The notes beneath the pieces were generated by a model. That model worked only from the letters and a program-made list of their open reading frames with translations, searched no databases and was not told the origin of the DNA. A stretch of DNA of 64,000 nt from Candidatus Limnocylindria bacterium. GTDB taxonomy: Bacteria > Chloroflexota > Limnocylindria > P2-11E. The translations under genes were made by a program, and so were the position numbers. Of the stretch, positions 18,185 through 53,396 are shown in pieces. The stretch spans positions 9,172 through 73,171 of the forward strand of contig DASYXA010000065.1 in the NCBI GenBank assembly GCA_035935465.1, given 5' to 3'. Position 1 is the first letter of the stretch, and each line of letters begins with the position of its first letter.

Positions 18185-18340
18185 AGCCGCCGGCCGCGCC
18201 ACGCCGGGACGACCGTCGAGATGAACACCCGGACCAGGCCCACGATCGGCACCGCGAAGAGCGCGCCGACGATGCCGGCCGCTTGAACCCGGCGAGCAGC
18301 GCGAGCATCGCGGCGAGCGGGTGCAGCCCCACCGCGTGGC
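18185..18340 (-). pseudogene. Possible remnant of an AI-2E (PerM/YhhT) family transporter C-terminus, frameshifted.
   Basis: Minus-strand fragments HAVGLHPLAAMLALLAGF and, in a +1 frame, AGIVGALFAVPIVGLVRVFIST resemble the conserved AI-2E C-terminal motif. There is no start or intact ORF. Confidence 0.25.
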
Positions 18341-18530
18341 TACGTCGCGCTCGCCGCGCTCGCCGTGATCGCGGTCCTTGGCGCGTCGCGCCTCGTGCTC
18401 GAGACGCTGGCTGCGGATGCAGGCGCCGAAGACTCCTCGGCGCGTTCGCCGGCATCGTCGAGCTCGTCCCGCGCTCGGTGAGGCACCGGGCATGCCACCT
18501 GGCGCGGACGCCGATTTTTCGGGTTTTTGC

Positions 18531-18577
18531 TTGACATTCGGGGTGTCTCTGTGATAGAACAGATGTTCTAGAGACAC
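18531..18577 (+). promoter_or_regulatory. Sigma-70-like promoter (TTGACA-17-gATAGAAC) with an embedded LexA SOS box TAGAACAGATGTTCTA inside a larger dyad (GTGTCTCT...AGAGACAC).
   Basis: GAAC-N4-GTTC core at 18557–18568 overlaps the -10 region. A T-rich UP-like tract (GATTTTTCGGGTTTTT) lies just upstream. The promoter sits 50–90 nt before the first HNH gene. Confidence 0.65.
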
Positions 18578-18620
18578 GGAACGGCGCGAAGAGTGGCTCG
18601 CAGCCGCGGTCTCGGGTGTC

Positions 18621-19097
18621 GTGGTGTCCGATCCCGTAGCGATGCGCACCTGCGCCCGCTGCCAGGTGGCGAAACCGGTGGTCGAGTTCGCGCTGAAGAG
18701 CGCCGCGCGAGGCACGTACCGGTCCTACTGCCGGCCGTGCTGCAGCGACTACGGCAAGGAGCACTACCGGAAGAACATCGCGAGCTACCTCAGCCGGTCG
18801 AAGATGCGCGGCCCGATCGACCGACTTCGGAACCGCCGGTTCGTAGCGGCATACCTCGCCGCACACCCTTGTGTGGATTGCGGCGAGGCTGATCCGATCG
18901 TGCTCGAATTCGATCACCGCGACCCGACAACGAAACGATCGGATGTGGGTCGGCTGATCCACACGAGCACCGTTGGCATCGTGCGCGCCGAGATCGAGAA
19001 GTGCGATGTCCGCTGCGGCAACTGCCATCGCATCCGCACCGCGACGCAGTTCGGCTGGTATCGCCTTGGAGAGGCTCTCGGTGCGTATCTCATCTGA
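18621..19097 (+). CDS. HNH-endonuclease-domain protein with N-terminal Cys4 zinc ribbon (paralog 1).
   Basis: CARC..YRSYCRPCC...HPCVDCG...VLEFDHRDP...EIEKCDVRCGNCHR. Immediately followed by a paralog with the same motif order. Confidence 0.75.
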   Translation: MVSDPVAMRTCARCQVAKPVVEFALKSAARGTYRSYCRPCCSDYGKEHYRKNIASYLSRSKMRGPIDRLRNRRFVAAYLAAHPCVDCGEADPIVLEFDHRDPTTKRSDVGRLIHTSTVGIVRAEIEKCDVRCGNCHRIRTATQFGWYRLGEALGAYLI

Positions 19098-19542
19098 GGA
19101 CAGGCTCTATCGGTGCAGCGCGTGCGGCGCGATGAAACCGGCAAGCAACTTCTCCTATTCGGATCAAGCCCGAGGCCTTTTGAACTCGTACTGCCGAACG
19201 TGCCACGCCGCATATCGGCATGCTCACTACATCGCGAACAAGGCCGATTACATCCGGCGTGCCATCGCGCAGACGCATGCGCGACGGGTAGAGAACCGGC
19301 GGGAGATCTTGCGATACCTGGCATCGCACCCTTGCGTCGACTGCGGACTGACGAACGTGATCGTGCTCGAGTTCGATCACCGCGACCCACGGAACAAGCT
19401 CGGCAACGTCGGCACCATGATGCTGAGCAGGCGCTGGCAGCGCGTGCGGGCGGAGATCGAGAAATGCGACGTGCGCTGCGTCAACTGCCACAGGCGCAAG
19501 ACCGCCGTGACCCTGAATTGGCGGATGAGGGGAGCGTCGTAG
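19081..19542 (+). CDS. HNH-endonuclease-domain protein (paralog 2). GTG start overlaps the end of paralog 1.
   Basis: CSACG..YCRTCH..HPCVDCG..VLEFDHRDP..EIEKCDVRCVNCHR. GGAGAGG SD before the GTG at 19081. The tracked N-terminal 36 aa overlap gene 1 in another frame and are rejected. Confidence 0.7.
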   Translation: MRISSEDRLYRCSACGAMKPASNFSYSDQARGLLNSYCRTCHAAYRHAHYIANKADYIRRAIAQTHARRVENRREILRYLASHPCVDCGLTNVIVLEFDHRDPRNKLGNVGTMMLSRRWQRVRAEIEKCDVRCVNCHRRKTAVTLNWRMRGAS

Positions 19543-19545
19543 AAT
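19518..19545 (+). promoter_or_regulatory. Putative tRNA promoter TTGGCG-16-TAGAAT ending 10 nt before the tRNA 5' end.
   Basis: Hexamer spacing and distance to the mature tRNA 5' end. Confidence 0.35.
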
Positions 19546-19555
19546 TTGCGCACGT

Positions 19556-19626
19556 GCGGGTGTGTTGAAGTGGCATCAAAGGATCTTCCCAAGATTCGAT
19601 CGCGGGTTCGATTCCCGCCACCCGCT
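19556..19626 (+). tRNA. tRNA-Gly (anticodon CCC), 71 nt, CCA not encoded.
   Basis: Hand-folded cloverleaf. Acceptor GCGGGTG/CACCCGC (7 bp), D arm TTGA-AGTGGCA-TCAA, anticodon arm GGATC-TTCCCAA-GATTC, variable loop GATC, T arm GCGGG-TTCGATT-CCCGC, discriminator T. Confidence 0.85.
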
Positions 19627-19662
19627 CAGTGATCGGGAAACGACTCACTAGTCTCTAGCCCG

Positions 19663-20856
19663 ATGCGCACCCCCTCCGGCTGGCGTCTCATGCTCACGCT
19701 CTTCACCCTCGCATCGTTCATCGAAGTCGTCGCGTACGGCCAGCTCGCGGCGTTCACCCCGCTGCACCTCCCGACGATCGGCGTCCCGCCCGAGGACGTC
19801 CCGGTGGCGGTCGGCCTCATCACCGCGGGCGTGAACGTCATCGGCCTGCTGTTCCTGCCGTTCTGGGGCGTGCTCGCCGATCGCTACGGCCGCAAGCCGC
19901 TGATCATCCGGTCATTCGTCGCGACCGGCGCGGGCCTCGCCGTCGCGGCGGTCGGCCGCAGCGTCTGGCTCTTCACGCTGGGCCGCGGGCTCAACTCGCT
20001 CAACCTCGGCAACAGCGGACTGATGATGACGACGCTCCAGGAATCGGCGCCCGCACGACGCCTGGGCTTCGCGTTCGGCGTGGTGAACGGCGCGGGCCCG
20101 CTCGGTGCGTTCATCGGTCCCCTCGTCGGCGGCCCGCTCGTCGACCGTTACGGCTTCAACGTCGTGCTCGGCATCGACGCGGCGCTCCTCGCGGGCGTCG
20201 TCCTCGCGCTGACGCTCGGCTACCGCGACGCCTTCGTGCCATCACCCGCGCGGCCGCCGATCCTGCGCGCCGCGTTCGAGGGGCTCCGCATCATCCGGAG
20301 CTCGCCCCGGCTGCGGGCACTCTTCCCCGCCCTGCTGGTCGTGTTCGCCGGCTGGATGCTCACGTTCATCTACCTGCCGCTCGTGGTCCAGCGGATCCAT
20401 GGCGATGAGGGACTCGGCACGGCGGTCGGCATCGCGCTCGGGGCGAGCGGGCTCGTCACGCTCCTCGCCTCGCCGGCCATCGGTGCGATCGCCGACCGGC
20501 ATGGGCACTGGCGCGTGCTCTACATCGCGGCCATCGCGGACGGGATCCTGTGGCTCGCTCCATGGTTCACCCGTGAGTACTGGCCGTTCGTCATCGCGTT
20601 CGCGGTGGTGAGCGGGATCGGCAGCGGGGTCTTCAGCCTCAGCTTCAACGTCCTGGCTTCCTCCGCGACGGATGCCGCACGCGCGCGCGTGATGACCTTC
20701 GCGTACCTGCCGTTGAATCTCGGATTCATCGTCGGCCCCGGCGTCGGCGCGTTCCTCGTGGGCCGCGACGTGTTCGCCATCTTCCCCGCGGCGACGGCGT
20801 TCGAGCTCGTGGGCGTCGCCCTCCTCGCGAACGCCGCGCGGAAGCGCATCGCGTGA
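19663..20856 (+). CDS. MFS transporter.
   Basis: Twelve-TM profile with the G-x3-D-R/K-x-G-R-K-like loop GVLADRYGRKP. Confidence 0.85.
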   Translation: MRTPSGWRLMLTLFTLASFIEVVAYGQLAAFTPLHLPTIGVPPEDVPVAVGLITAGVNVIGLLFLPFWGVLADRYGRKPLIIRSFVATGAGLAVAAVGRSVWLFTLGRGLNSLNLGNSGLMMTTLQESAPARRLGFAFGVVNGAGPLGAFIGPLVGGPLVDRYGFNVVLGIDAALLAGVVLALTLGYRDAFVPSPARPPILRAAFEGLRIIRSSPRLRALFPALLVVFAGWMLTFIYLPLVVQRIHGDEGLGTAVGIALGASGLVTLLASPAIGAIADRHGHWRVLYIAAIADGILWLAPWFTREYWPFVIAFAVVSGIGSGVFSLSFNVLASSATDAARARVMTFAYLPLNLGFIVGPGVGAFLVGRDVFAIFPAATAFELVGVALLANAARKRIA

Positions 20857-46163: not shown

Positions 46164-46688
46164 GTGCCGCTGTACGTGTTCAAAGGCAAGTCGCCGCGGG
46201 TGCATCCGACCGCGTTCGTCGCCCCGACCGCCGTGCTGATCGGCGACGTGACGCTGCACGAGAACGCGTCGGTCTGGTTCGGCACCGTGCTCCGCGCCGA
46301 CATGGACCGCATCGAGATCGGCGCCCGGTCGAACGTGCAGGACAACAGCACGATCCACACGGACGAGGGCGAGCCGACCATCATCGGCGAGGACGTCACC
46401 ATCGGGCACAACGCCCTCGTCCATTCGAGCGTCGTGGAGCGCAACGTGCTCATCGGCCAGGCCGCGGTCCTCGTCGGGGGCTGCGTGATCGGGACCGGCT
46501 CGATCGTCGGCGCCGGTGCGGTCGTGCCCGCGAGGATGACCGTGCCGCCCCGCTCGCTCGTGGTCGGCGTGCCCGGGAAGGTCGTGCGCGAAGCGAGGCC
46601 GGATGACGAGCGCTGGACCGTGAAGGCGGCGGAGCATTACGTCGAGCTCGGCGCCTGGTACCGCGACAACATCGACGGGCATCGGTAG
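46164..46688 (+). CDS. Gamma-carbonic-anhydrase / hexapeptide-repeat (LbH, PaaY/YrdA-like) protein.
   Basis: Left-handed beta-helix hexapeptide repeats (IGDVTL, IGARSNV, IGEDVTIGHNALV) and metal-site His residues. GTG start at VPLYVF. Confidence 0.8.
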   Translation: MPLYVFKGKSPRVHPTAFVAPTAVLIGDVTLHENASVWFGTVLRADMDRIEIGARSNVQDNSTIHTDEGEPTIIGEDVTIGHNALVHSSVVERNVLIGQAAVLVGGCVIGTGSIVGAGAVVPARMTVPPRSLVVGVPGKVVREARPDDERWTVKAAEHYVELGAWYRDNIDGHR

Positions 46689-48217
46689 TGGCGACGCTCC
46701 GCATCGACGGCAACAGCCTGACGATCGCCGACGTCGTGAGCGTGGCCCGCCGCGAGACGCCGGTGGCCCTCGATCGCGCCTCGGAGCAGCTCGTGCGGGC
46801 GGCCGCGAGGCTGGTCGCCGAGTTCGCGGACGGCGACGAGCCGATCTACGGCATCAATACCGGCTTCGGCGACCTCTCCCAGGTCCGGATCCCGCGGGCG
46901 GATCTCGCGACGCTCCAGCTCAATCTCCTGCGGAGCCATGCCGCCGGCGTCGGCGATCCGCTGCCCGCCGACATCACGCGCGCGGTCCTGTTGCTCCGCG
47001 CGAACACGCTCGCCGCGGGCCGCTCGGGGGTCCGGCCCGAGATCATCGATCTCCTCCTCGACCTCCTCAACCGCGGCGTCCATCCGGTCATCCCGATGCA
47101 CGGGAGCGTCGGCGCGTCGGGCGACCTGGCGCCGCTGGCGCACGCGGCCCTCGTCCTCGTCGGCGAGGGCGAGGCGGCGTTCGACGGAAAGGTCATGAGC
47201 GGCGCCGACGCGTTGAAGCGCGCGGACCTCAAGCCGCTGGAGCTCGCGCCCAAGGAGGCGCTCGCGCTCATCAACGGGACGCAGGTGATGACCGCCATCG
47301 GCTGCCTCGCCCTCCACGACGCCGAGGTCCTCTGCACGTCCGCCGACATCATCGGCGCGCTGTCGTCGGAGGCGCTGCGCGCGACGGACGCCGCGTGGGA
47401 CGCGTCGCTCAATGCGGAGCGGCCGCATCCGGGACAGGAGACCGTCGCGGCGAACCTGCGGCGCCTCGTGCACGGCAGTCCGATCATCGCGTCCCACCGC
47501 TTCGGCGATCCGCGCGTGCAGGACCCCTACTCGATCCGCTGCATGCCGCAGGTCCATGGTGCTTCGCGCGACGCGCTCGCGTACACGAGGCGCGTGCTCG
47601 AGGTCGAGATCAACAGCGTCACCGACAACCCACTCGTGTTCGCCGAGGAGAAGCGGATCGTGAGCGGCGGCAACTTTCACGGCCAGCCGGTCGCGATCGC
47701 GCTCGATCTCGCGACGATCGCGGTCGCCGAGCTCGCGGACATCAGCGAGAGCCGCATCGACCGGATGACCAACGGCCGGACGAGCGGCTTGCCGGCGTTC
47801 CTGTCGCCCGATCCGGGACGCCACTCGGGATTCATGGTCGCGCAGTACACGGCGGCGGCCCTCGTCACCGAGAACCGCCTGCGCGCGATGCCCGCGTCGG
47901 TCGAGTCGATCCCGACGAGCGCGGACATGGAGGATCACGTGAGCATGGGCGTGCACGCGGCCCACAAGCTCGCGGCGGTCGTGCGCAACACCCGCGACGT
48001 GCTCGCGATCGAGTCGCTCTGCGCGGCGCAGGGCCTCGACCTGCTCGGCATGACGAGCTCGGCCGCGGTGGAGGCCGCGCGGCGGGTCGTGCGCGAGCAC
48101 GTCCCCACGCTCGCCGCCGACCGGGCGCTCGCGCCGGATATTTCCACGATGCGCGACGTGATCGAGCGCGATCTGCTCGCGACGGCCGTCCGGCATGCGG
48201 CCGGGGCGATCGCGTAG
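46688..48217 (+). CDS. hutH: Histidine ammonia-lyase.
   Basis: MIO-forming ASGDLAPL triad, 509 aa. The GTG start overlaps the upstream stop by 1 nt. Confidence 0.92.
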   Translation: MATLRIDGNSLTIADVVSVARRETPVALDRASEQLVRAAARLVAEFADGDEPIYGINTGFGDLSQVRIPRADLATLQLNLLRSHAAGVGDPLPADITRAVLLLRANTLAAGRSGVRPEIIDLLLDLLNRGVHPVIPMHGSVGASGDLAPLAHAALVLVGEGEAAFDGKVMSGADALKRADLKPLELAPKEALALINGTQVMTAIGCLALHDAEVLCTSADIIGALSSEALRATDAAWDASLNAERPHPGQETVAANLRRLVHGSPIIASHRFGDPRVQDPYSIRCMPQVHGASRDALAYTRRVLEVEINSVTDNPLVFAEEKRIVSGGNFHGQPVAIALDLATIAVAELADISESRIDRMTNGRTSGLPAFLSPDPGRHSGFMVAQYTAAALVTENRLRAMPASVESIPTSADMEDHVSMGVHAAHKLAAVVRNTRDVLAIESLCAAQGLDLLGMTSSAAVEAARRVVREHVPTLAADRALAPDISTMRDVIERDLLATAVRHAAGAIA

Positions 48218-48271: not shown

Positions 48272-48541
48272 GTGGCCCGACGCAAGCGCGTACCGCTCAT
48301 CAGCTCGGTGCAGGCCCTCCGCGGCATCGCGGTGGGCATCACGATGCTCAGCCTCGCCGGCATGACCGCGTACGCCGGCGGTCACCCTTACAACACGGGT
48401 GCCCCGCTCCAGCCGCAGCAGCCCGTCGCGGCCCCGGCCGCCGCTCCGGCGACGACCACCACGACCACCGGCCGCCTGCAGCTGAGCCGCGGCATCACGA
48501 CCACCACGACCCGGCCGGTCACGATCACTCGCCGAAGCTAG
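48272..48541 (+). CDS. Small Thr/Pro-rich putative secreted protein.
   Basis: N-terminal hydrophobic segment, then PQQPVAAPAAAPATTTTTT low-complexity. Weak support. Confidence 0.3.
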   Translation: MARRKRVPLISSVQALRGIAVGITMLSLAGMTAYAGGHPYNTGAPLQPQQPVAAPAAAPATTTTTTGRLQLSRGITTTTTRPVTITRRS

Positions 48542-48545
48542 CCGC

Positions 48546-49109
48546 ATGACCACGCTTGTGTGGATCGTCGCCCGCTCGACGGGCACGGCGGCCCTGGTCG
48601 CGATCGTCCTCTCCGTGCTCTCCGGCATGGCGCTCCGTTCCGGAGCGCTCGCGTGGCTATCGCACAACCGTGGCCTGCGGGCGGTCCACGATCTCACCGG
48701 CGTCCTCTGGCTGCCGCTCGCGCTCGCGCATGTGATCGCGCTCCTGCTCGACCCGTATTCGAGGATCGGACTCGCCGACCTGGTCGTCCCGTTCCTCGTC
48801 CCGTACGGATCGTTGGCGATCGGCCTCGGCACGATCAGCCTCCAGCTCATCGTCGTCGTCCTCCTGTCGACCTGGCTGCGCTCGGCGCTCACGCAGCAGG
48901 GCTGGCTCGCGATCCACCGCCTGTCGTACGTGGCGTTCGTGCTGGCGTTCGCGCACGGCCTGCTCGCGGGCACGGACCTCGCGCAGCCGATCCTGAGCGC
49001 GCTCGCCTGGGTCACCGCCGCGGTCCTCGCGATCGTCGGCATCCGCCGGCTCACCGCGGCGCGCGGGCGTCAGTCCGCCGCCCGCTCCAAGACCGTCGCG
49101 ATCCCCTGA
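48546..49109 (+). CDS. Polytopic membrane protein (ferric-reductase/cytochrome-b-like TM domain). The last 13 codons are encoded by direct-repeat copy 1.
   Basis: Five to six TM helices with conserved His residues (HDLTG, AHVIALL, AHGLLAG). Confidence 0.6.
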   Translation: MTTLVWIVARSTGTAALVAIVLSVLSGMALRSGALAWLSHNRGLRAVHDLTGVLWLPLALAHVIALLLDPYSRIGLADLVVPFLVPYGSLAIGLGTISLQLIVVVLLSTWLRSALTQQGWLAIHRLSYVAFVLAFAHGLLAGTDLAQPILSALAWVTAAVLAIVGIRRLTAARGRQSAARSKTVAIP

Positions 49110-49116
49110 CCGACGC
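49071..49116. repeat. 46-bp direct repeat, copy 1 (45/46 identical to copy 2).
   Basis: CAGTCCGCCGCCCGCTCCAAGACCGTCGCGATCCCCTGACCGACGC. Copy 2 at 49946 differs at one base. Confidence 0.9.
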
Positions 49117-49562
49117 TAGCGCTTCGCGCTCTTCTTCGCGGCCCGCTTTGTCATTGCTCTCCCAGTAGTGCGCGCCACGGTCGTACTCCTCCGAGCCCGA
49201 AGGATGCTGCCCGCTGCCGAACGTCGAAGGGCGCGCACGTTCGGCATGAGGCTGGACGCCTTCTTGGGTACAGGCATGTTGATCGCGTCGAATTCCACCA
49301 CAAGCTTCGCGTGCAGCGCGCGACCGATCTTCTCGAGAGTGTCGATCGAGGGATACACACCGCCGGCTTCGAGACGCGAGATAGCGGATTGAGTGGTGCC
49401 CATCCGTTCGGCGAGCTGTCCTTGTGAGAGTCCGCCGGCGACTCGCAGCGCCCGAACGCGCTCCGCCAGGATGTAGCCAGCGCGTGCCTTGTGGTAACCA
49501 GCCACGACATCCCCGCCCTGCACACGGTCTCTCTTGATCTGGGCCCACGTCTTCGCTGTCAT
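49116..49562 (-). CDS. XRE-family HTH antitoxin (HigA-like).
   Basis: HTH LSQGQLAERMGTTQSAISRLEAG. Directly downstream of the toxin with a 1-nt spacer. K/R-rich tail. Confidence 0.75.
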   Translation of the reverse strand: MTAKTWAQIKRDRVQGGDVVAGYHKARAGYILAERVRALRVAGGLSQGQLAERMGTTQSAISRLEAGGVYPSIDTLEKIGRALHAKLVVEFDAINMPVPKKASSLMPNVRALRRSAAGSILRARRSTTVARTTGRAMTKRAAKKSAKR

Positions 49563-49945
49563 CTCACTCCTCCGCTTCGTGCCCTTGTTCGATGCATCGC
49601 ATCATCGCCCGCTCCGCCCGATCGATCTCGCGTGCCTCACGATCTTGCTGTTTTGCGAACACGGTGAGAAGGATCTGCCGGCGACCGCGAGCGACGTAAT
49701 ACGTGATCCGTCTGCGCTCCCTCCCAAGGTAGAACCGAAGTTCTCTCAGTTTGCCACGCAACCGGCGCGTGTATGGCTCACCAAGAGCCACGCCCTCTCG
49801 CTCGAGAAGGTCGACGTAGAACTGGACGTGACCGAAGTCGTCTCCCGACAGACCACGGAGCCACTGCTCTACCTCGGGCTCGACCTCGACCGCGCCCCAC
49901 ATAGCGTACATGCTATATCGGCGTCGGGTGTCGGTCGGGAGTGAT
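49117..49945. mobile_element. About 830-bp lower-GC cassette carrying the higBA-like pair, bounded by the 46-bp direct repeats. Putative inserted element.
   Basis: Bounded by near-identical repeats. Local GC visibly lower (about 60%) than the flanks (about 72%). It separates the convergent membrane-protein and thiolase genes. Confidence 0.55.
49564..49911 (-). CDS. RelE/ParE-superfamily toxin of the Gp49/HigB-like group.
   Basis: 115 aa. VQFYVDLLEREGVALGEPYTRRLRGKLRELRF is a typical Gp49-like (PF05973) pattern. Toxin-first order as in higBA. Confidence 0.65.
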   Translation of the reverse strand: MYAMWGAVEVEPEVEQWLRGLSGDDFGHVQFYVDLLEREGVALGEPYTRRLRGKLRELRFYLGRERRRITYYVARGRRQILLTVFAKQQDREAREIDRAERAMMRCIEQGHEAEE

Positions 49946-51159
49946 CAGTCCGGCGCCCGCTCCAAGACCGTCGCGATCCCCTGACCGACGCCGATGCACA
50001 TCGAGACGAGCGCGTAGCGCGCATCCGTCCGGCGCAGCTGCAGCGCGGCGGTGCCGGCGAGCCGCGCGCCGCTCGCGCCGAGCGGGTGCCCGATCGCGAT
50101 CGCGCCGCCGTTCGGATTGAGGCGCTGCTCGTCGCGCCAGTCGATGCCGAGCTCGGCGCAGCACGCGATGACCTGGCTCGCGAACGCCTCGTTCAGCTCG
50201 ACGATCGCCATGTCCGCCAGGTCGAGCTTCGCGCGCCAGAGCGCCTTGCGGGACGCCGGGATCGGGCCGAGGCCCATCTCGTCGGGGCGCACACCCGCGG
50301 CACCGGTGCTCACCACGCGCGCGATCGGCTGGAGGCCCAGCGCCTTCGCGCGCTCGCCCGAGGCGACGACGAGCGCCGACGCGCCGTCGTTGATCCCCGA
50401 GCTGTTGCCCGCCGTGACACTGCCGTTCTCGGCGAACGCGGGCCGCAGCTTCGCGAGCGCCTCGAGCGTGCTGCCGGCGCGCGGATGCTCGTCTCGGTCG
50501 ACCGCCACCGCCGGGCCCTTCGCCTGGGGCACCGGTGTCGCGACGATCTCCTCGGCGAGGAGGCCGTTCGCCATCGCGCGTTCCGCCTTCTGCTGGCTGA
50601 GGAGCGCGAGGCGGTCCTGATCGGCGCGCGACACCAGGCGCCGCTGCGCGACGTTCTCCGCGGTCTGGCCAAGCGTGACGGTGTGGCCGTCGGCGACGAG
50701 CCGCGGATGCGCGAAGCGCCACCCGAGCGTGCTGTCGGCGGACTCGGGCGCGCCGCGCGGGAACGCGGTATCCGGCTTCAGGGTCACGATCGGCGCCCGG
50801 GTCATGCTCTCGACGCCGCCGGCGATGAACAGGTCGCCCTGCCCGCCCCAGATCGCCTCGGCCGCGCTGTTCAGCGCCTGGAGGCCCGAGCCGCAGAGCC
50901 GGTTCACGGTCTGCGCCGGCACCTCCACCGGGAAGCCGGCGAGCAGCGTCGCCATCCGCGCGACGTTGCGGTTGTCCTCACCGGACTGGTTCGCGCACCC
51001 GAGGATGACATCGTCGATGCCCGCTGGATCCATGCCGCTCCGCTCGACGACCGCGCGCAGGACGTGGGCGGCCATCGCGTCGGGACGCAGGCCGGCGAGC
51101 GCGCCGCCGTAGCGGCCGAACGGCGTGCGAAGGTACGCGCAGATGAACGCGTCGGTCAC
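49945..51159 (-). CDS. Acetyl-CoA C-acyltransferase (thiolase, PcaF/PaaJ/FadA-like).
   Basis: Active-site Cys in NRLCGSGLQA, plus NGGAIAIGHPLGASGAR and CIGVGQG. Confidence 0.9.
   Translation of the reverse strand: MTDAFICAYLRTPFGRYGGALAGLRPDAMAAHVLRAVVERSGMDPAGIDDVILGCANQSGEDNRNVARMATLLAGFPVEVPAQTVNRLCGSGLQALNSAAEAIWGGQGDLFIAGGVESMTRAPIVTLKPDTAFPRGAPESADSTLGWRFAHPRLVADGHTVTLGQTAENVAQRRLVSRADQDRLALLSQQKAERAMANGLLAEEIVATPVPQAKGPAVAVDRDEHPRAGSTLEALAKLRPAFAENGSVTAGNSSGINDGASALVVASGERAKALGLQPIARVVSTGAAGVRPDEMGLGPIPASRKALWRAKLDLADMAIVELNEAFASQVIACCAELGIDWRDEQRLNPNGGAIAIGHPLGASGARLAGTAALQLRRTDARYALVSMCIGVGQGIATVLERAPD
49946..49991. repeat. 46-bp direct repeat, copy 2.
   Basis: CAGTCCGGCGCCCGCTCCAAGACCGTCGCGATCCCCTGACCGACGC. 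On the minus strand it encodes the thiolase C-terminus GQGIATVLERAPD. Confidence 0.9.
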
Positions 51160-51743: not shown

Positions 51744-53396
51744 ATGAGCGCCGTCGCGAGCCGGGTCGTCCGGGCCCCCCGTGGATCGTCGCTGTCGTGC
51801 CTGGCGTGGCCGCAAGAAGCGGCGTTCCGGATGCTCCAGAACAACCTCGATCCGGACGTGGCCGAGCGTCCGGACGAGCTCATCGTCTACGGCGGCACCG
51901 GCCGGGCGGCCCGCTCGTGGCCCGCGTTCGACCGGATCCTCTCGACGCTGAAGCGCCTCAAGGGCGACGAGACCCTGCTCGTGCAGTCGGGAAAGCCGGT
52001 CGGCGTGTTCCGCACCCACGAGTGGGCGCCGCGGGTCCTCATCTCGAACGCGATGCTCGTCCCGAAGTGGGCGACCTGGGACGAGTTCCGCGCGCTCGAG
52101 GCGATGGGCCTGACGATGTACGGGCAGATGACCGCGGGTTCCTGGATCTACATCGGGACCCAGGGGATCCTCCAGGGCACCTACGAGACCTTCGCCGCGG
52201 TCGCGCGCACGCACTTCGACGGCACGCTCGATGGCCGGCTCGTGGTCACGGCCGGTCTCGGCGGCATGGGCGGGGCGCAGCCGCTGGCGATCACGATGAA
52301 CGGCGGCGTCGCGCTCGTGGTGGAGGTCGACCCGACCCGCGCCGGGCGCCGCCTGAAGCAGGGCTTCCTGGACGAAATGACCGATTCGCTCGACGACGCG
52401 CTCGCCCGGGCCGAGGGGTACCTCGGCTCGCGCACGCCGCGGTCGATCGGCCTGGTCGCGAACGCGGCGGCCGTGCTGCCCGAGCTCGTGCGCCGCGGGG
52501 TGCGCGTCGACGTGGTCACCGATCAGACCTCCGCCCACGACCCGCTCGACGGCTACGTCCCCGACGTGCGCCATGCCGGCGTGCTGCGGATCAACGATCC
52601 GGCCGGCTACATCGCGGCCTCGCGCGCGTCGATCGCGACGCAGTGCGAGGCCATCGTCGCGCTGAAGGACCGCGGCGCGATCGCGTTCGACTACGGGAAC
52701 AACCTGCGCGGCGAAGCCCGGACCGCCGGCTTCGCGCGCGCGTTCGACTACCCCGGCTTCGTGCCCGCGTACATCCGTCCGCTGTTCGAGCGTGGCAAGG
52801 GACCATTCCGGTGGGTCGCGCTGTCCGGCGATCCGCGGGACATCCTCGCGACCGACCGCGCCGTCCTCGACCTGTTTCCCGAGGACCGCTCGCTCCGGCG
52901 CTGGATCGAGCTCGCCGAGGCGCGCGTCCCGTTCCAGGGACTGCCCGCCCGCGTCTGCTGGCTCGGGTACGGCGAACGGGCCGAGTTCGGCGCGCGGATC
53001 GACGACCTGGTCCGGACCGGGACCCTGGGCGCGCCGATCGTCATCGGGCGCGACCACCTCGACTCCGGATCCGTCGCGTCACCGAACCGCGAGACCGAGG
53101 GCATGCGCGACGGCAGCGACGCGATCGCCGACTGGCCGATCCTGAACGCGCTCGTGAACACCGCCGCGGGCGCGACGTGGGTGTCGGTCCATCACGGCGG
53201 CGGGGTCGGCATCGGGAACTCGATCCACGCCGGCATGGTCGCCGTCGCGGACGGGACGGAACTCGGCCGTCGGAAGCTGGAGCGCGTGCTGGTGACCGAT
53301 CCGGGCACCGGCGTCATGCGTCACGCCGACGCCGGCTACCCGGACGCGATCGCGTTCGCGAGCGAGCGCGGCGTCGACCTCCCGAGCGTCCCCTAG
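51744..53396 (+). CDS. hutU: Urocanate hydratase.
   Basis: 550 aa. NAD-binding [12 protein letters not shown], plus ...[18 protein letters not shown]..., typical of HutU. Confidence 0.92.

Follow-up and report, generated by a model that had tools for sequence, protein, structure and literature searches.

How do toxin-antitoxin (TA) pairs move between chromosomal sites when no plasmid, phage, transposon or integron carries them? Such movement is still poorly explained, and the question is raised in a compact form by a 64,000-nucleotide (nt) stretch of DNA from a Candidatus Limnocylindria bacterium (Chloroflexota; assembly GCA_035935465.1, contig DASYXA010000065.1, positions 9,172 to 73,171), which is referred to below as the window. 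Here, a two-gene TA cassette of the HigB(Gp49)/XRE kind is bounded by two nearly identical 47-nt direct repeats and lies between a thiolase gene and a membrane-protein gene. We consider it probable that the locus is an insertion with long target duplication, in which an 828-bp TA module lies in a 40-nt overlap of the two convergent host genes and 47 nt of host DNA have been duplicated. Recombinase-free insertion accompanied by duplication of a long target stretch is known, although few cases have been documented, and in the literature searched we found no report of a TA cassette flanked by such a duplication, or of one inserted into a convergent overlap. The locus offers an unusually clean natural case, with empty and occupied sites in many lineages, a bare TA module and a duplication that can be explained in functional terms.

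Direct repeats and the convergent gene overlap

The two repeat copies occupy positions 49070-49116 on the membrane-gene side (left copy) and 49945-49991 on the thiolase side (right copy). Their sequence is TCAGTCCG[C/G]CGCCCGCTCCAAGACCGTCGCGATCCCCTGACCGACGC, identical at 46 of 47 positions, with C49078 against G49953 as the sole mismatch. When up to three mismatches are tolerated, a search of the 64-kb window finds the 47-nt sequence at these two places only, and 100 dinucleotide-preserving shuffles gave no match to it. In a scan of the whole window it is the second-longest close-range direct repeat, and the same scan found no second island bracketed by a near-identical direct repeat. The enclosed DNA (49117-49944, minus strand; 828 bp) consists of a promoter/operator block, a toxin gene and an antitoxin gene, and nothing else. 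Its GC content is 62.7%, against 71.2% for the window, placing it 3.7 standard deviations below the mean of 828-nt windows (standard deviation 2.3%). GC content at third codon positions (GC3) is 0.70 and 0.73 in the two cassette genes, compared with 0.94-0.95 in the flanking genes. No recombinase was found within the insert or among its neighbors (thiolase, membrane protein, histidine ammonia-lyase and urocanase), and the insert holds no further open reading frame (ORF) with a recognizable domain.

The thiolase gene (acetyl-CoA C-acyltransferase / 3-oxoadipyl-CoA thiolase-like; 49945-51159, minus strand; 404 amino acids (aa)) lies immediately upstream of the cassette and is read in the same direction. 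Convergent with it is a ferric-reductase-like (YedZ/MsrQ-like) membrane-protein gene (48546-49109, plus strand; 187 aa), which ends inside the left repeat. Both window ORFs are full length and equal in length to those of most empty relatives described below; most of the membrane-protein homologues listed have 187 aa. On the plus strand, positions 49070-49109 of the left copy encode the end of the membrane protein (13 codons and the stop), while on the minus strand the same copy is a non-coding duplicate of the thiolase 3' end (…VGQGIATVLERAAD*). The right copy, read on the minus strand, is the functional thiolase 3' end (…VGQGIATVLERAPD*), comprising its last 14 codons and its stop codon at 49945-49947. 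Beyond the membrane-protein stop, the left copy has 7 further nt, which are non-coding and yet conserved in the window.

What the repeat represents can be read from relatives that lack the cassette. At 12 Candidatus Limnocylindria loci from about eight lineages, with protein identity down to 67%, the 47-nt sequence is present once and there is no cassette. Two of these (L001 and L002, on contigs of metagenome-assembled genomes) came from a membrane-protein scan of representative genomes, and the others (L019-L023, L025, L026, L027, L029 and L031) were reached through membrane-protein homologues. In 11 of the 12 loci the thiolase and membrane-protein genes share exactly 40 nt; in L002 a 4-nt difference puts the membrane-protein tail in another frame, with unrelated sequence, and leaves an overlap of only 32 nt. 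The 40-nt stretch corresponds to 49070-49109 of the window and lies at 2226-2265 in L019, 1337-1376 in L027 and 3025-3064 in L029. Across the whole 47-nt zone, the empty sites of the eight lineages differ on average by only 4.75 of 47 positions. The two reading frames are phased with their third codon positions in register. This leaves 16 sites that are synonymous in both frames and switch between G and C, and thus the overlap can be highly conserved and still vary at a few G/C sites.

Because 12 related loci hold a single copy and no cassette, the empty overlap is the ancestral state, and it follows that the 47-nt repeat is a duplicated host target, made up of the whole overlap plus 7 nt. The duplication leaves each host gene with a complete 3' end of its own, the membrane-protein gene in the left copy and the thiolase gene in the right. 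This would be exactly what an insertion of DNA at that point needs in order to avoid truncating either gene.

The same site is occupied in two further genomes. Among more than 1300 toxin homologues at E<=1e-10, only two besides the window's own protein exceed 80% identity. In a different Limnocylindria metagenome-assembled genome from NCBI (L003), the toxin and antitoxin at this site are 84% and 66% identical to those of the window, and in a JGI soil metagenome contig (L004) they are 87-88% and 72% identical. Both loci have the order thiolase, toxin, antitoxin and then the membrane-protein gene on the opposite strand, with the cassette oriented as in the window, and each has a repeat pair of its own, identical at 45 of 46 positions in L003 and at 49 of 52 in L004. 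The junctions of the three occupied genomes agree within 1 base on the side of the thiolase stop and within about 5 nt on the side of the antitoxin stop.

A sequence-only reading of the window had singled out a lower-GC segment of about 830 bp as an inserted TA module between 46-bp repeats identical at 45 positions. The segment and its low GC are as it described, and the repeat is real, although its length is 47 nt and its identity 46/47. The proposal of an inserted module is borne out by the 12 empty loci with their single repeat sequence. Two findings would have spoken against that reading, an identical (ancestral) arrangement without repeats in relatives or a repeat that is common in the genome, and neither was seen; the occupied relatives turn out to carry repeat pairs, 12 loci are empty, and the 64-kb window holds two copies only.

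The cassette and its relatives

The toxin gene (49564-49911, minus strand), of 115 aa when read from its first ATG, encodes a HigB-like member of the RelE/ParE superfamily. It scores 47.5 bits (cut-off 23.9) with the profile of the Gp49 family (PF05973), of whose 90 positions it covers 1-89. Translation likely begins at the second ATG, at 49902, giving 112 aa in agreement with the NCBI annotation; a database protein of 112 aa (P0001) is 100% identical to the toxin. Exact-sequence look-ups returned no record for either the toxin or the thiolase of the window. The sequence match to a solved HigB structure (PDB 6af3) is marginal (E=1e-4), and none of the NCBIfam models matches the toxin. The antitoxin gene (49116-49562, minus strand; 148 aa) encodes an XRE-type helix-turn-helix domain at residues 32-85, with Pfam matches to HTH_3 (51.3 bits, cut-off 23) and HTH_31 (49 bits, cut-off 27), followed by a C-terminal tail of about 45 residues, rich in lysine and arginine (K/R-rich), that is native to the subfamily; its stop codon abuts the left repeat. 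These profile searches uphold the earlier identification of a toxin-first HigB(Gp49)/XRE pair. The toxin gene precedes the antitoxin gene on the same strand with a 1-nt gap, and this order is kept in 14 related loci. In its sequence features the TA pair itself looks like an ordinary member of the Gp49/XRE HigBA-like kind.

Upstream of the toxin gene lies a conserved 28-nt block, GCCGATATAGCATGTACGCTATGTGGGG (49895-49922, minus strand), which is 100% identical in the three occupied genomes. It contains a -10-like TATAGC (49912-49917), a palindrome ATAGC-N6-GCTAT (49901-49916; ATGC-free) and the start codons. In cassette relatives from other contexts, the layout of TATAGC, palindrome and ATG is analogous (TATAGCA-N4-TGCTATG, with the palindrome ATAGCA-N4-TGCTAT). 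The block may represent the promoter and antitoxin operator of a leaderless or near-leaderless transcript. Scans of the cassette for sigma-70 consensus promoters and for intrinsic terminators returned 0 matches. Between the block and the thiolase stop is a variable spacer (49923-49944, minus strand; 22 nt in the window), 22-25 nt long and 45-57% identical among the three occupied genomes.

Outside this site, a metagenome scan yielded 12 relatives of the cassette in other contexts (L005-L016), with toxins 70-75% identical to that of the window. The same minimal unit makes them up, beginning about 10 nt upstream of TATAGC and ending with the antitoxin stop. None of the 12 has flanking direct repeats of at least 12 nt, and the 47-mer is also absent from them, so that the repeats are a property of one insertion site and not of the TA family. 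On the same grounds we rejected a general repeat-forming mechanism of insertion for this family. The other-context antitoxins all end in …AKK(T/S)A(K/R)R within the K/R-rich tail. The subfamily has a GC content of 0.59-0.65 (GC3 0.55-0.78) in every context, always below that of its flanks (0.63-0.72), and thus shows a persistent lack of amelioration. As to possible carriers, no phage match was found, nor any match to viral contigs by protein or by the 28-nt promoter block; the plasmid homologues are confined to actinobacterial plasmids and are distant, with at most 46% identity.

The surroundings of the insertion site belong to a histidine-utilization neighborhood, with a histidine ammonia-lyase gene at 46688-48217 (plus strand; PF00221 in orthologues) and a urocanase gene at 51744-53396 (plus strand), and the gene order around it is kept in most relatives. 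Directly upstream of the membrane-protein gene is an 89-aa ORF (48272-48541, plus strand) with a hydrophobic segment, a Pro/Ala/Thr-rich tail and no Pfam match; a gene of 80-92 aa takes the same position in all relatives examined, and its product is probably a partner of the ferric-reductase-like protein. In L025, an additional gene for a 230-aa methyltransferase (1456-2148) stands between the ammonia-lyase gene and the small ORF. It is absent from the window and from the other relatives, and is another insertion or deletion polymorphism of the same neighborhood.

Elsewhere in the window, the only other strongly low-GC island spans 18301-20129 (lowest value 0.612 in windows of 828 nt). Two paralogous ORFs lie there in tandem, at 18621-19097 and 18973-19542, both with the motif CxxC…HPCVDCG…LEFDHRDP…CxNCH, which looks HNH nuclease-like by eye, and neither with a Pfam match at E<=0.01. 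A 75-nt repeat within this island (18851-18925 and 19314-19388) is 77% identical between its copies.

History of the occupied site

The three occupied genomes do not form a group of their own. Among the sampled lineages host-gene identity is 80-89%, with relationships that are close to star-like. A neighbor-joining tree built from the two host genes places the occupied L004 next to the empty L001 as its sister (98.5% bootstrap), from which it follows that the occupied genomes are not monophyletic; in the same tree the window is weakly grouped with the empty L025. Synonymous divergence (dS) among the occupied genomes is 0.25-0.56 for the host genes, 1.0-1.3 for the toxin and 0.7-1.0 for the antitoxin, and in each of the three pairs the cassette has about twice the dS of the host genes, with the same rank order. 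These values would be compatible with co-divergence of cassette and host if host synonymous sites, at a GC3 of 0.95, evolve more slowly. With dS of about 0.7-1.3 between the same-site cassettes of three lineages, the insertion is old and not recent. The ratio of nonsynonymous to synonymous divergence (dN/dS) between occupied lineages is about 0.07 for the toxin and 0.2 for the antitoxin, which fits old, functional genes that appear to be under purifying selection and not to have been exchanged recently.

In a fixed 47-nt frame, the left and right repeat copies differ at only 1, 3 and 3 positions inside the three genomes, while copies of the same type differ at 4-7 positions between genomes. 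Independent evolution of the copies from before the split of the lineages predicts about 16 differences in total, against the 7 seen (Poisson P=0.01; Fisher test on sites P=0.03). The left copies are 87-89% identical between genomes, as opposed to about 50% (45-57%) for the adjacent non-coding spacer, and they encode the membrane-protein tail with 0-2 amino-acid changes relative to empty relatives. For the similarity of the left copies, three explanations remain, namely gene conversion, recent re-creation of the repeat, or an unexpected selection on the tail. An argument from derived bases common to both copies was weakened by the outgroups, and count statistics were used in its place. The flanks beside the repeats are of the recipient lineage's type, the left flank of the window being that of L025 and the left flank of L004 that of L001, and for this reason horizontal transfer of an occupied allele together with its flanks was rejected.

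A history that could join these observations, and to which we give about an even chance, is that of one old insertion followed by homogenization of the repeats and by precise, repeat-mediated losses. A type II TA module with its own promoter/operator would have entered the chromosome of a Candidatus Limnocylindria bacterium at the thiolase/membrane-gene overlap by illegitimate joining, which may have involved staggered breaks or two sister duplexes, with no transposase, integrase or att/attC site involved. Only an event that duplicated the overlap would have been survivable, as a simple insertion would truncate the thiolase or the membrane protein. Vertical inheritance under purifying selection would have followed, the two 47-nt copies being kept nearly identical through gene conversion. 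In several lineages, RecA-type recombination between the copies may have deleted the cassette exactly and restored the ancestral overlap; the precise excision that the sequence-only reading had suggested fits the patchy distribution. A stable toxin paired with a labile antitoxin would penalize such deletion and so aid the persistence of the cassette, which might be transcribed from its own -10/operator block, possibly with read-through from the co-directional thiolase gene. A single event accounts for the agreement of the junctions, for a cassette/host dS ratio that stays constant, and for the absence of insertion machinery.

Several observations weigh against this history. Since the occupied genomes are not monophyletic, a single gain needs at least 3-4 independent precise losses. 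The GC3 of the cassettes in the occupied genomes (0.68-0.78) has not moved towards the 0.94-0.95 of the host despite the long residence that would have to be assumed. Some lineage-specific states reappear in outgroups, where L029, an empty locus, equals the right copy of the window at positions 1-19 and L027 shares A21G; homoplasy at doubly synonymous sites therefore contributes to the pattern, and the homogenization statistics are modest. Microhomology was not seen at the junctions, and the joining itself is not an observable event.

Some of the same points can be turned towards recurrent re-integration, an account we regard as doubtful. Recombination between the repeats would free an 875-bp circle, consisting of the cassette and one 47-nt copy, which would be taken up by related lineages and enter their single-copy overlap by a RecA-type single crossover (Campbell-type), such that the three occupied lineages would be separate gains after one founding duplication. 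The patchy and non-monophyletic occupancy, the recipient-type host flanks that extend right up to the repeats, the near-identity of the copies inside genomes, and the excess of cassette over host dS with its unameliorated GC3 all agree with such a cycle, as does the high conservation of the target at the empty sites. So do the mismatches of L003 and L004: they are concentrated in the left copy at its edge nearest the cassette, which is where sequence from a donor would be expected. A constant cassette/host dS ratio with one rank order speaks instead for co-divergence, and no closely similar cassettes are shared across lineages, the closest toxins being 84-87% identical; neither a circle junction nor a tandem copy or carrier was found. 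Moreover, RecA-dependent integration would have to work close to its lower limit on 47 bp of homology that includes mismatches. A related suggestion, which we likewise regard as doubtful, is that the duplicated dual-coding overlap, whose single-copy target is held at about 75-98% identity across the clade by dual coding, acts as a portable att site or homology arm that requires no recombinase.

The near-identity of the copies might also reflect purifying selection alone, on the thiolase C-terminus in the right copy and on the membrane-protein tail in the left, with no conversion and no recent duplication. The 47-nt zone is indeed highly conserved in every empty relative, and the left copies still encode a near-identical tail. 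We nevertheless think this unlikely, as the frameshifted tail of L002 suggests weak constraint, conservation in the window extends to the 7 non-coding nt of its left copy, and conservation alone does not predict greater identity within than between genomes (P=0.01-0.03). Lower still we place the proposal that the repeats are attL and attR of a site-specific integrative element that uses the thiolase 3' end as attB, with an integrase that acts in trans or has decayed to leave the TA pair. Integrative elements often target and restore gene 3' ends, with att identity blocks of up to 40-60 bp (PMC2853133), and here one site is used in three lineages. Against an integrative element stand the lack of an integrase, any other gene or a remnant between the repeats in three diverged copies; an antitoxin stop that abuts one repeat and a promoter block only 22 nt from the other; an insert that is the same minimal TA unit found in 12 repeat-free contexts; and repeat copies that track the host lineage and not a common attP. 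The sequence-only reading had entertained an att-like duplication; the repeat is not an att site brought in by the element but host DNA, namely the 3' ends of the thiolase and membrane-protein genes. We can attach hardly any credence to an assembly chimera at the repeat, or to a transposon, a miniature inverted-repeat transposable element (MITE) or an integron cassette. Although the source is a metagenome-assembled genome, the same architecture is present in three independent assemblies (window, L003 and L004). An inverted-repeat scan of the region found no terminal inverted repeats above chance level at 49117 or 49944. Two candidate pairs were rejected as such repeats: the best pair, 49119-49135 / 50004-50020 (15 of 17 positions), has one arm within the thiolase gene outside the repeat, and a perfect 11-nt pair, 49917-49927 (ATCGGCGTCGG) / 49985-49995 (CCGACGCCGAT), brackets the right repeat and is absent from L003 and L004. 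Both lie off the cassette ends and at chance level, which is a rough estimate for a 1-kb GC-rich region. No attC-like imperfect palindrome is present at the cassette 3' end, where the antitoxin stop abuts the host-derived repeat, and the DNA fold of the target/junction region is indistinguishable from that of shuffles (z=-0.8). A duplication of 47 nt also far exceeds known transposase target duplications (PMC2853133), in accordance with the view of the sequence-only reading that the repeat is too long for one.

Several ideas become testable at this locus, including precise excision mediated by repeats, concerted evolution of very short repeats, and addiction as a protection of the cassette. 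Were re-integration to be true, it would constitute a minimal, gene-free cycle of excision and integration for a two-gene TA module, with natural repeated gains at one site.

Comparison with known systems

Integron gene cassettes can carry TA pairs, as in the superintegrons of Vibrio. The present cassette resembles these in being a promoter-proximal, two-gene TA cassette of about 0.8 kb bounded by repeats. It differs in that its repeats are host coding sequence and in having no imperfect palindrome, integron integrase or array. With integrative elements at the 3' ends of protein-coding and tRNA genes it shares direct repeats of tens of bp, one of them the functional 3' end of the target, and the possibility of precise excision; unlike them, it has no integrase or excisionase, its repeats are those of the host lineage, and it contains a TA module only.

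As a TA pair, the cassette is close to HigBA modules, with which it has in common its Pfam families, the toxin-first order with 1 nt between the genes, a palindrome where the operon begins, and purifying selection that is strong. It is set apart by the K/R-rich antitoxin tail of about 45 residues, by the lack of a matching NCBIfam toxin model and by only marginal similarity to 6af3.

Toxins of the HigB/RelE type act on mRNA and are not known to cut DNA. This bears on the closest parallel, insertion with long target duplication, as described for restriction-modification (RM) complexes by genome comparison (Furuta, Abe & Kobayashi 2010, NAR 38:2428, PMC2853133); an earlier account of the same phenomenon is cited in PMC3874152 as Nobusato et al. 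2000, Gene 259:99. The authors of the RM study suspected DNA breakage by the cargo, in the form of double-strand breaks, as the common cause (PMC2853133), a cause that is unavailable here because the toxin family acts on mRNA. A virus-like life cycle was once hypothesized for RM systems (PMC2853133), and the re-integration cycle considered above, if real, would be a life cycle of that kind. The published cases were recognized by a single-copy empty site in a related genome, a repeat of more than 30 bp and an insert of less than 20 kb without a mobility gene, and they include 46-bp repeats over gene 3' ends in H. influenzae and a 47/47 case in T. thermophilus (PMC2853133). At the present locus there are 12 empty loci, a duplication of 47 nt (46 in L003 and 52 in L004) and an insert of 828 bp with two TA genes only.

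The likeness extends to a compact addiction pair without a mobility gene, to repeats of more than 30 bp that are single in empty sites, to the deviant GC content of the insert, and to the uniqueness of the repeats in the sequence available (two in the 64-kb window and one per empty locus). The cargo here is a TA pair, with no R and M genes, so that the locus is an analogue or extension lying outside the RM data set. Its target is exactly a convergent dual-coding overlap, and the arrangement is an old one, present in three diverged lineages and not a polymorphism among strains. Insertion with long target duplication is thereby extended from RM systems to a TA pair, which argues against its dependence on nuclease activity of the cargo.

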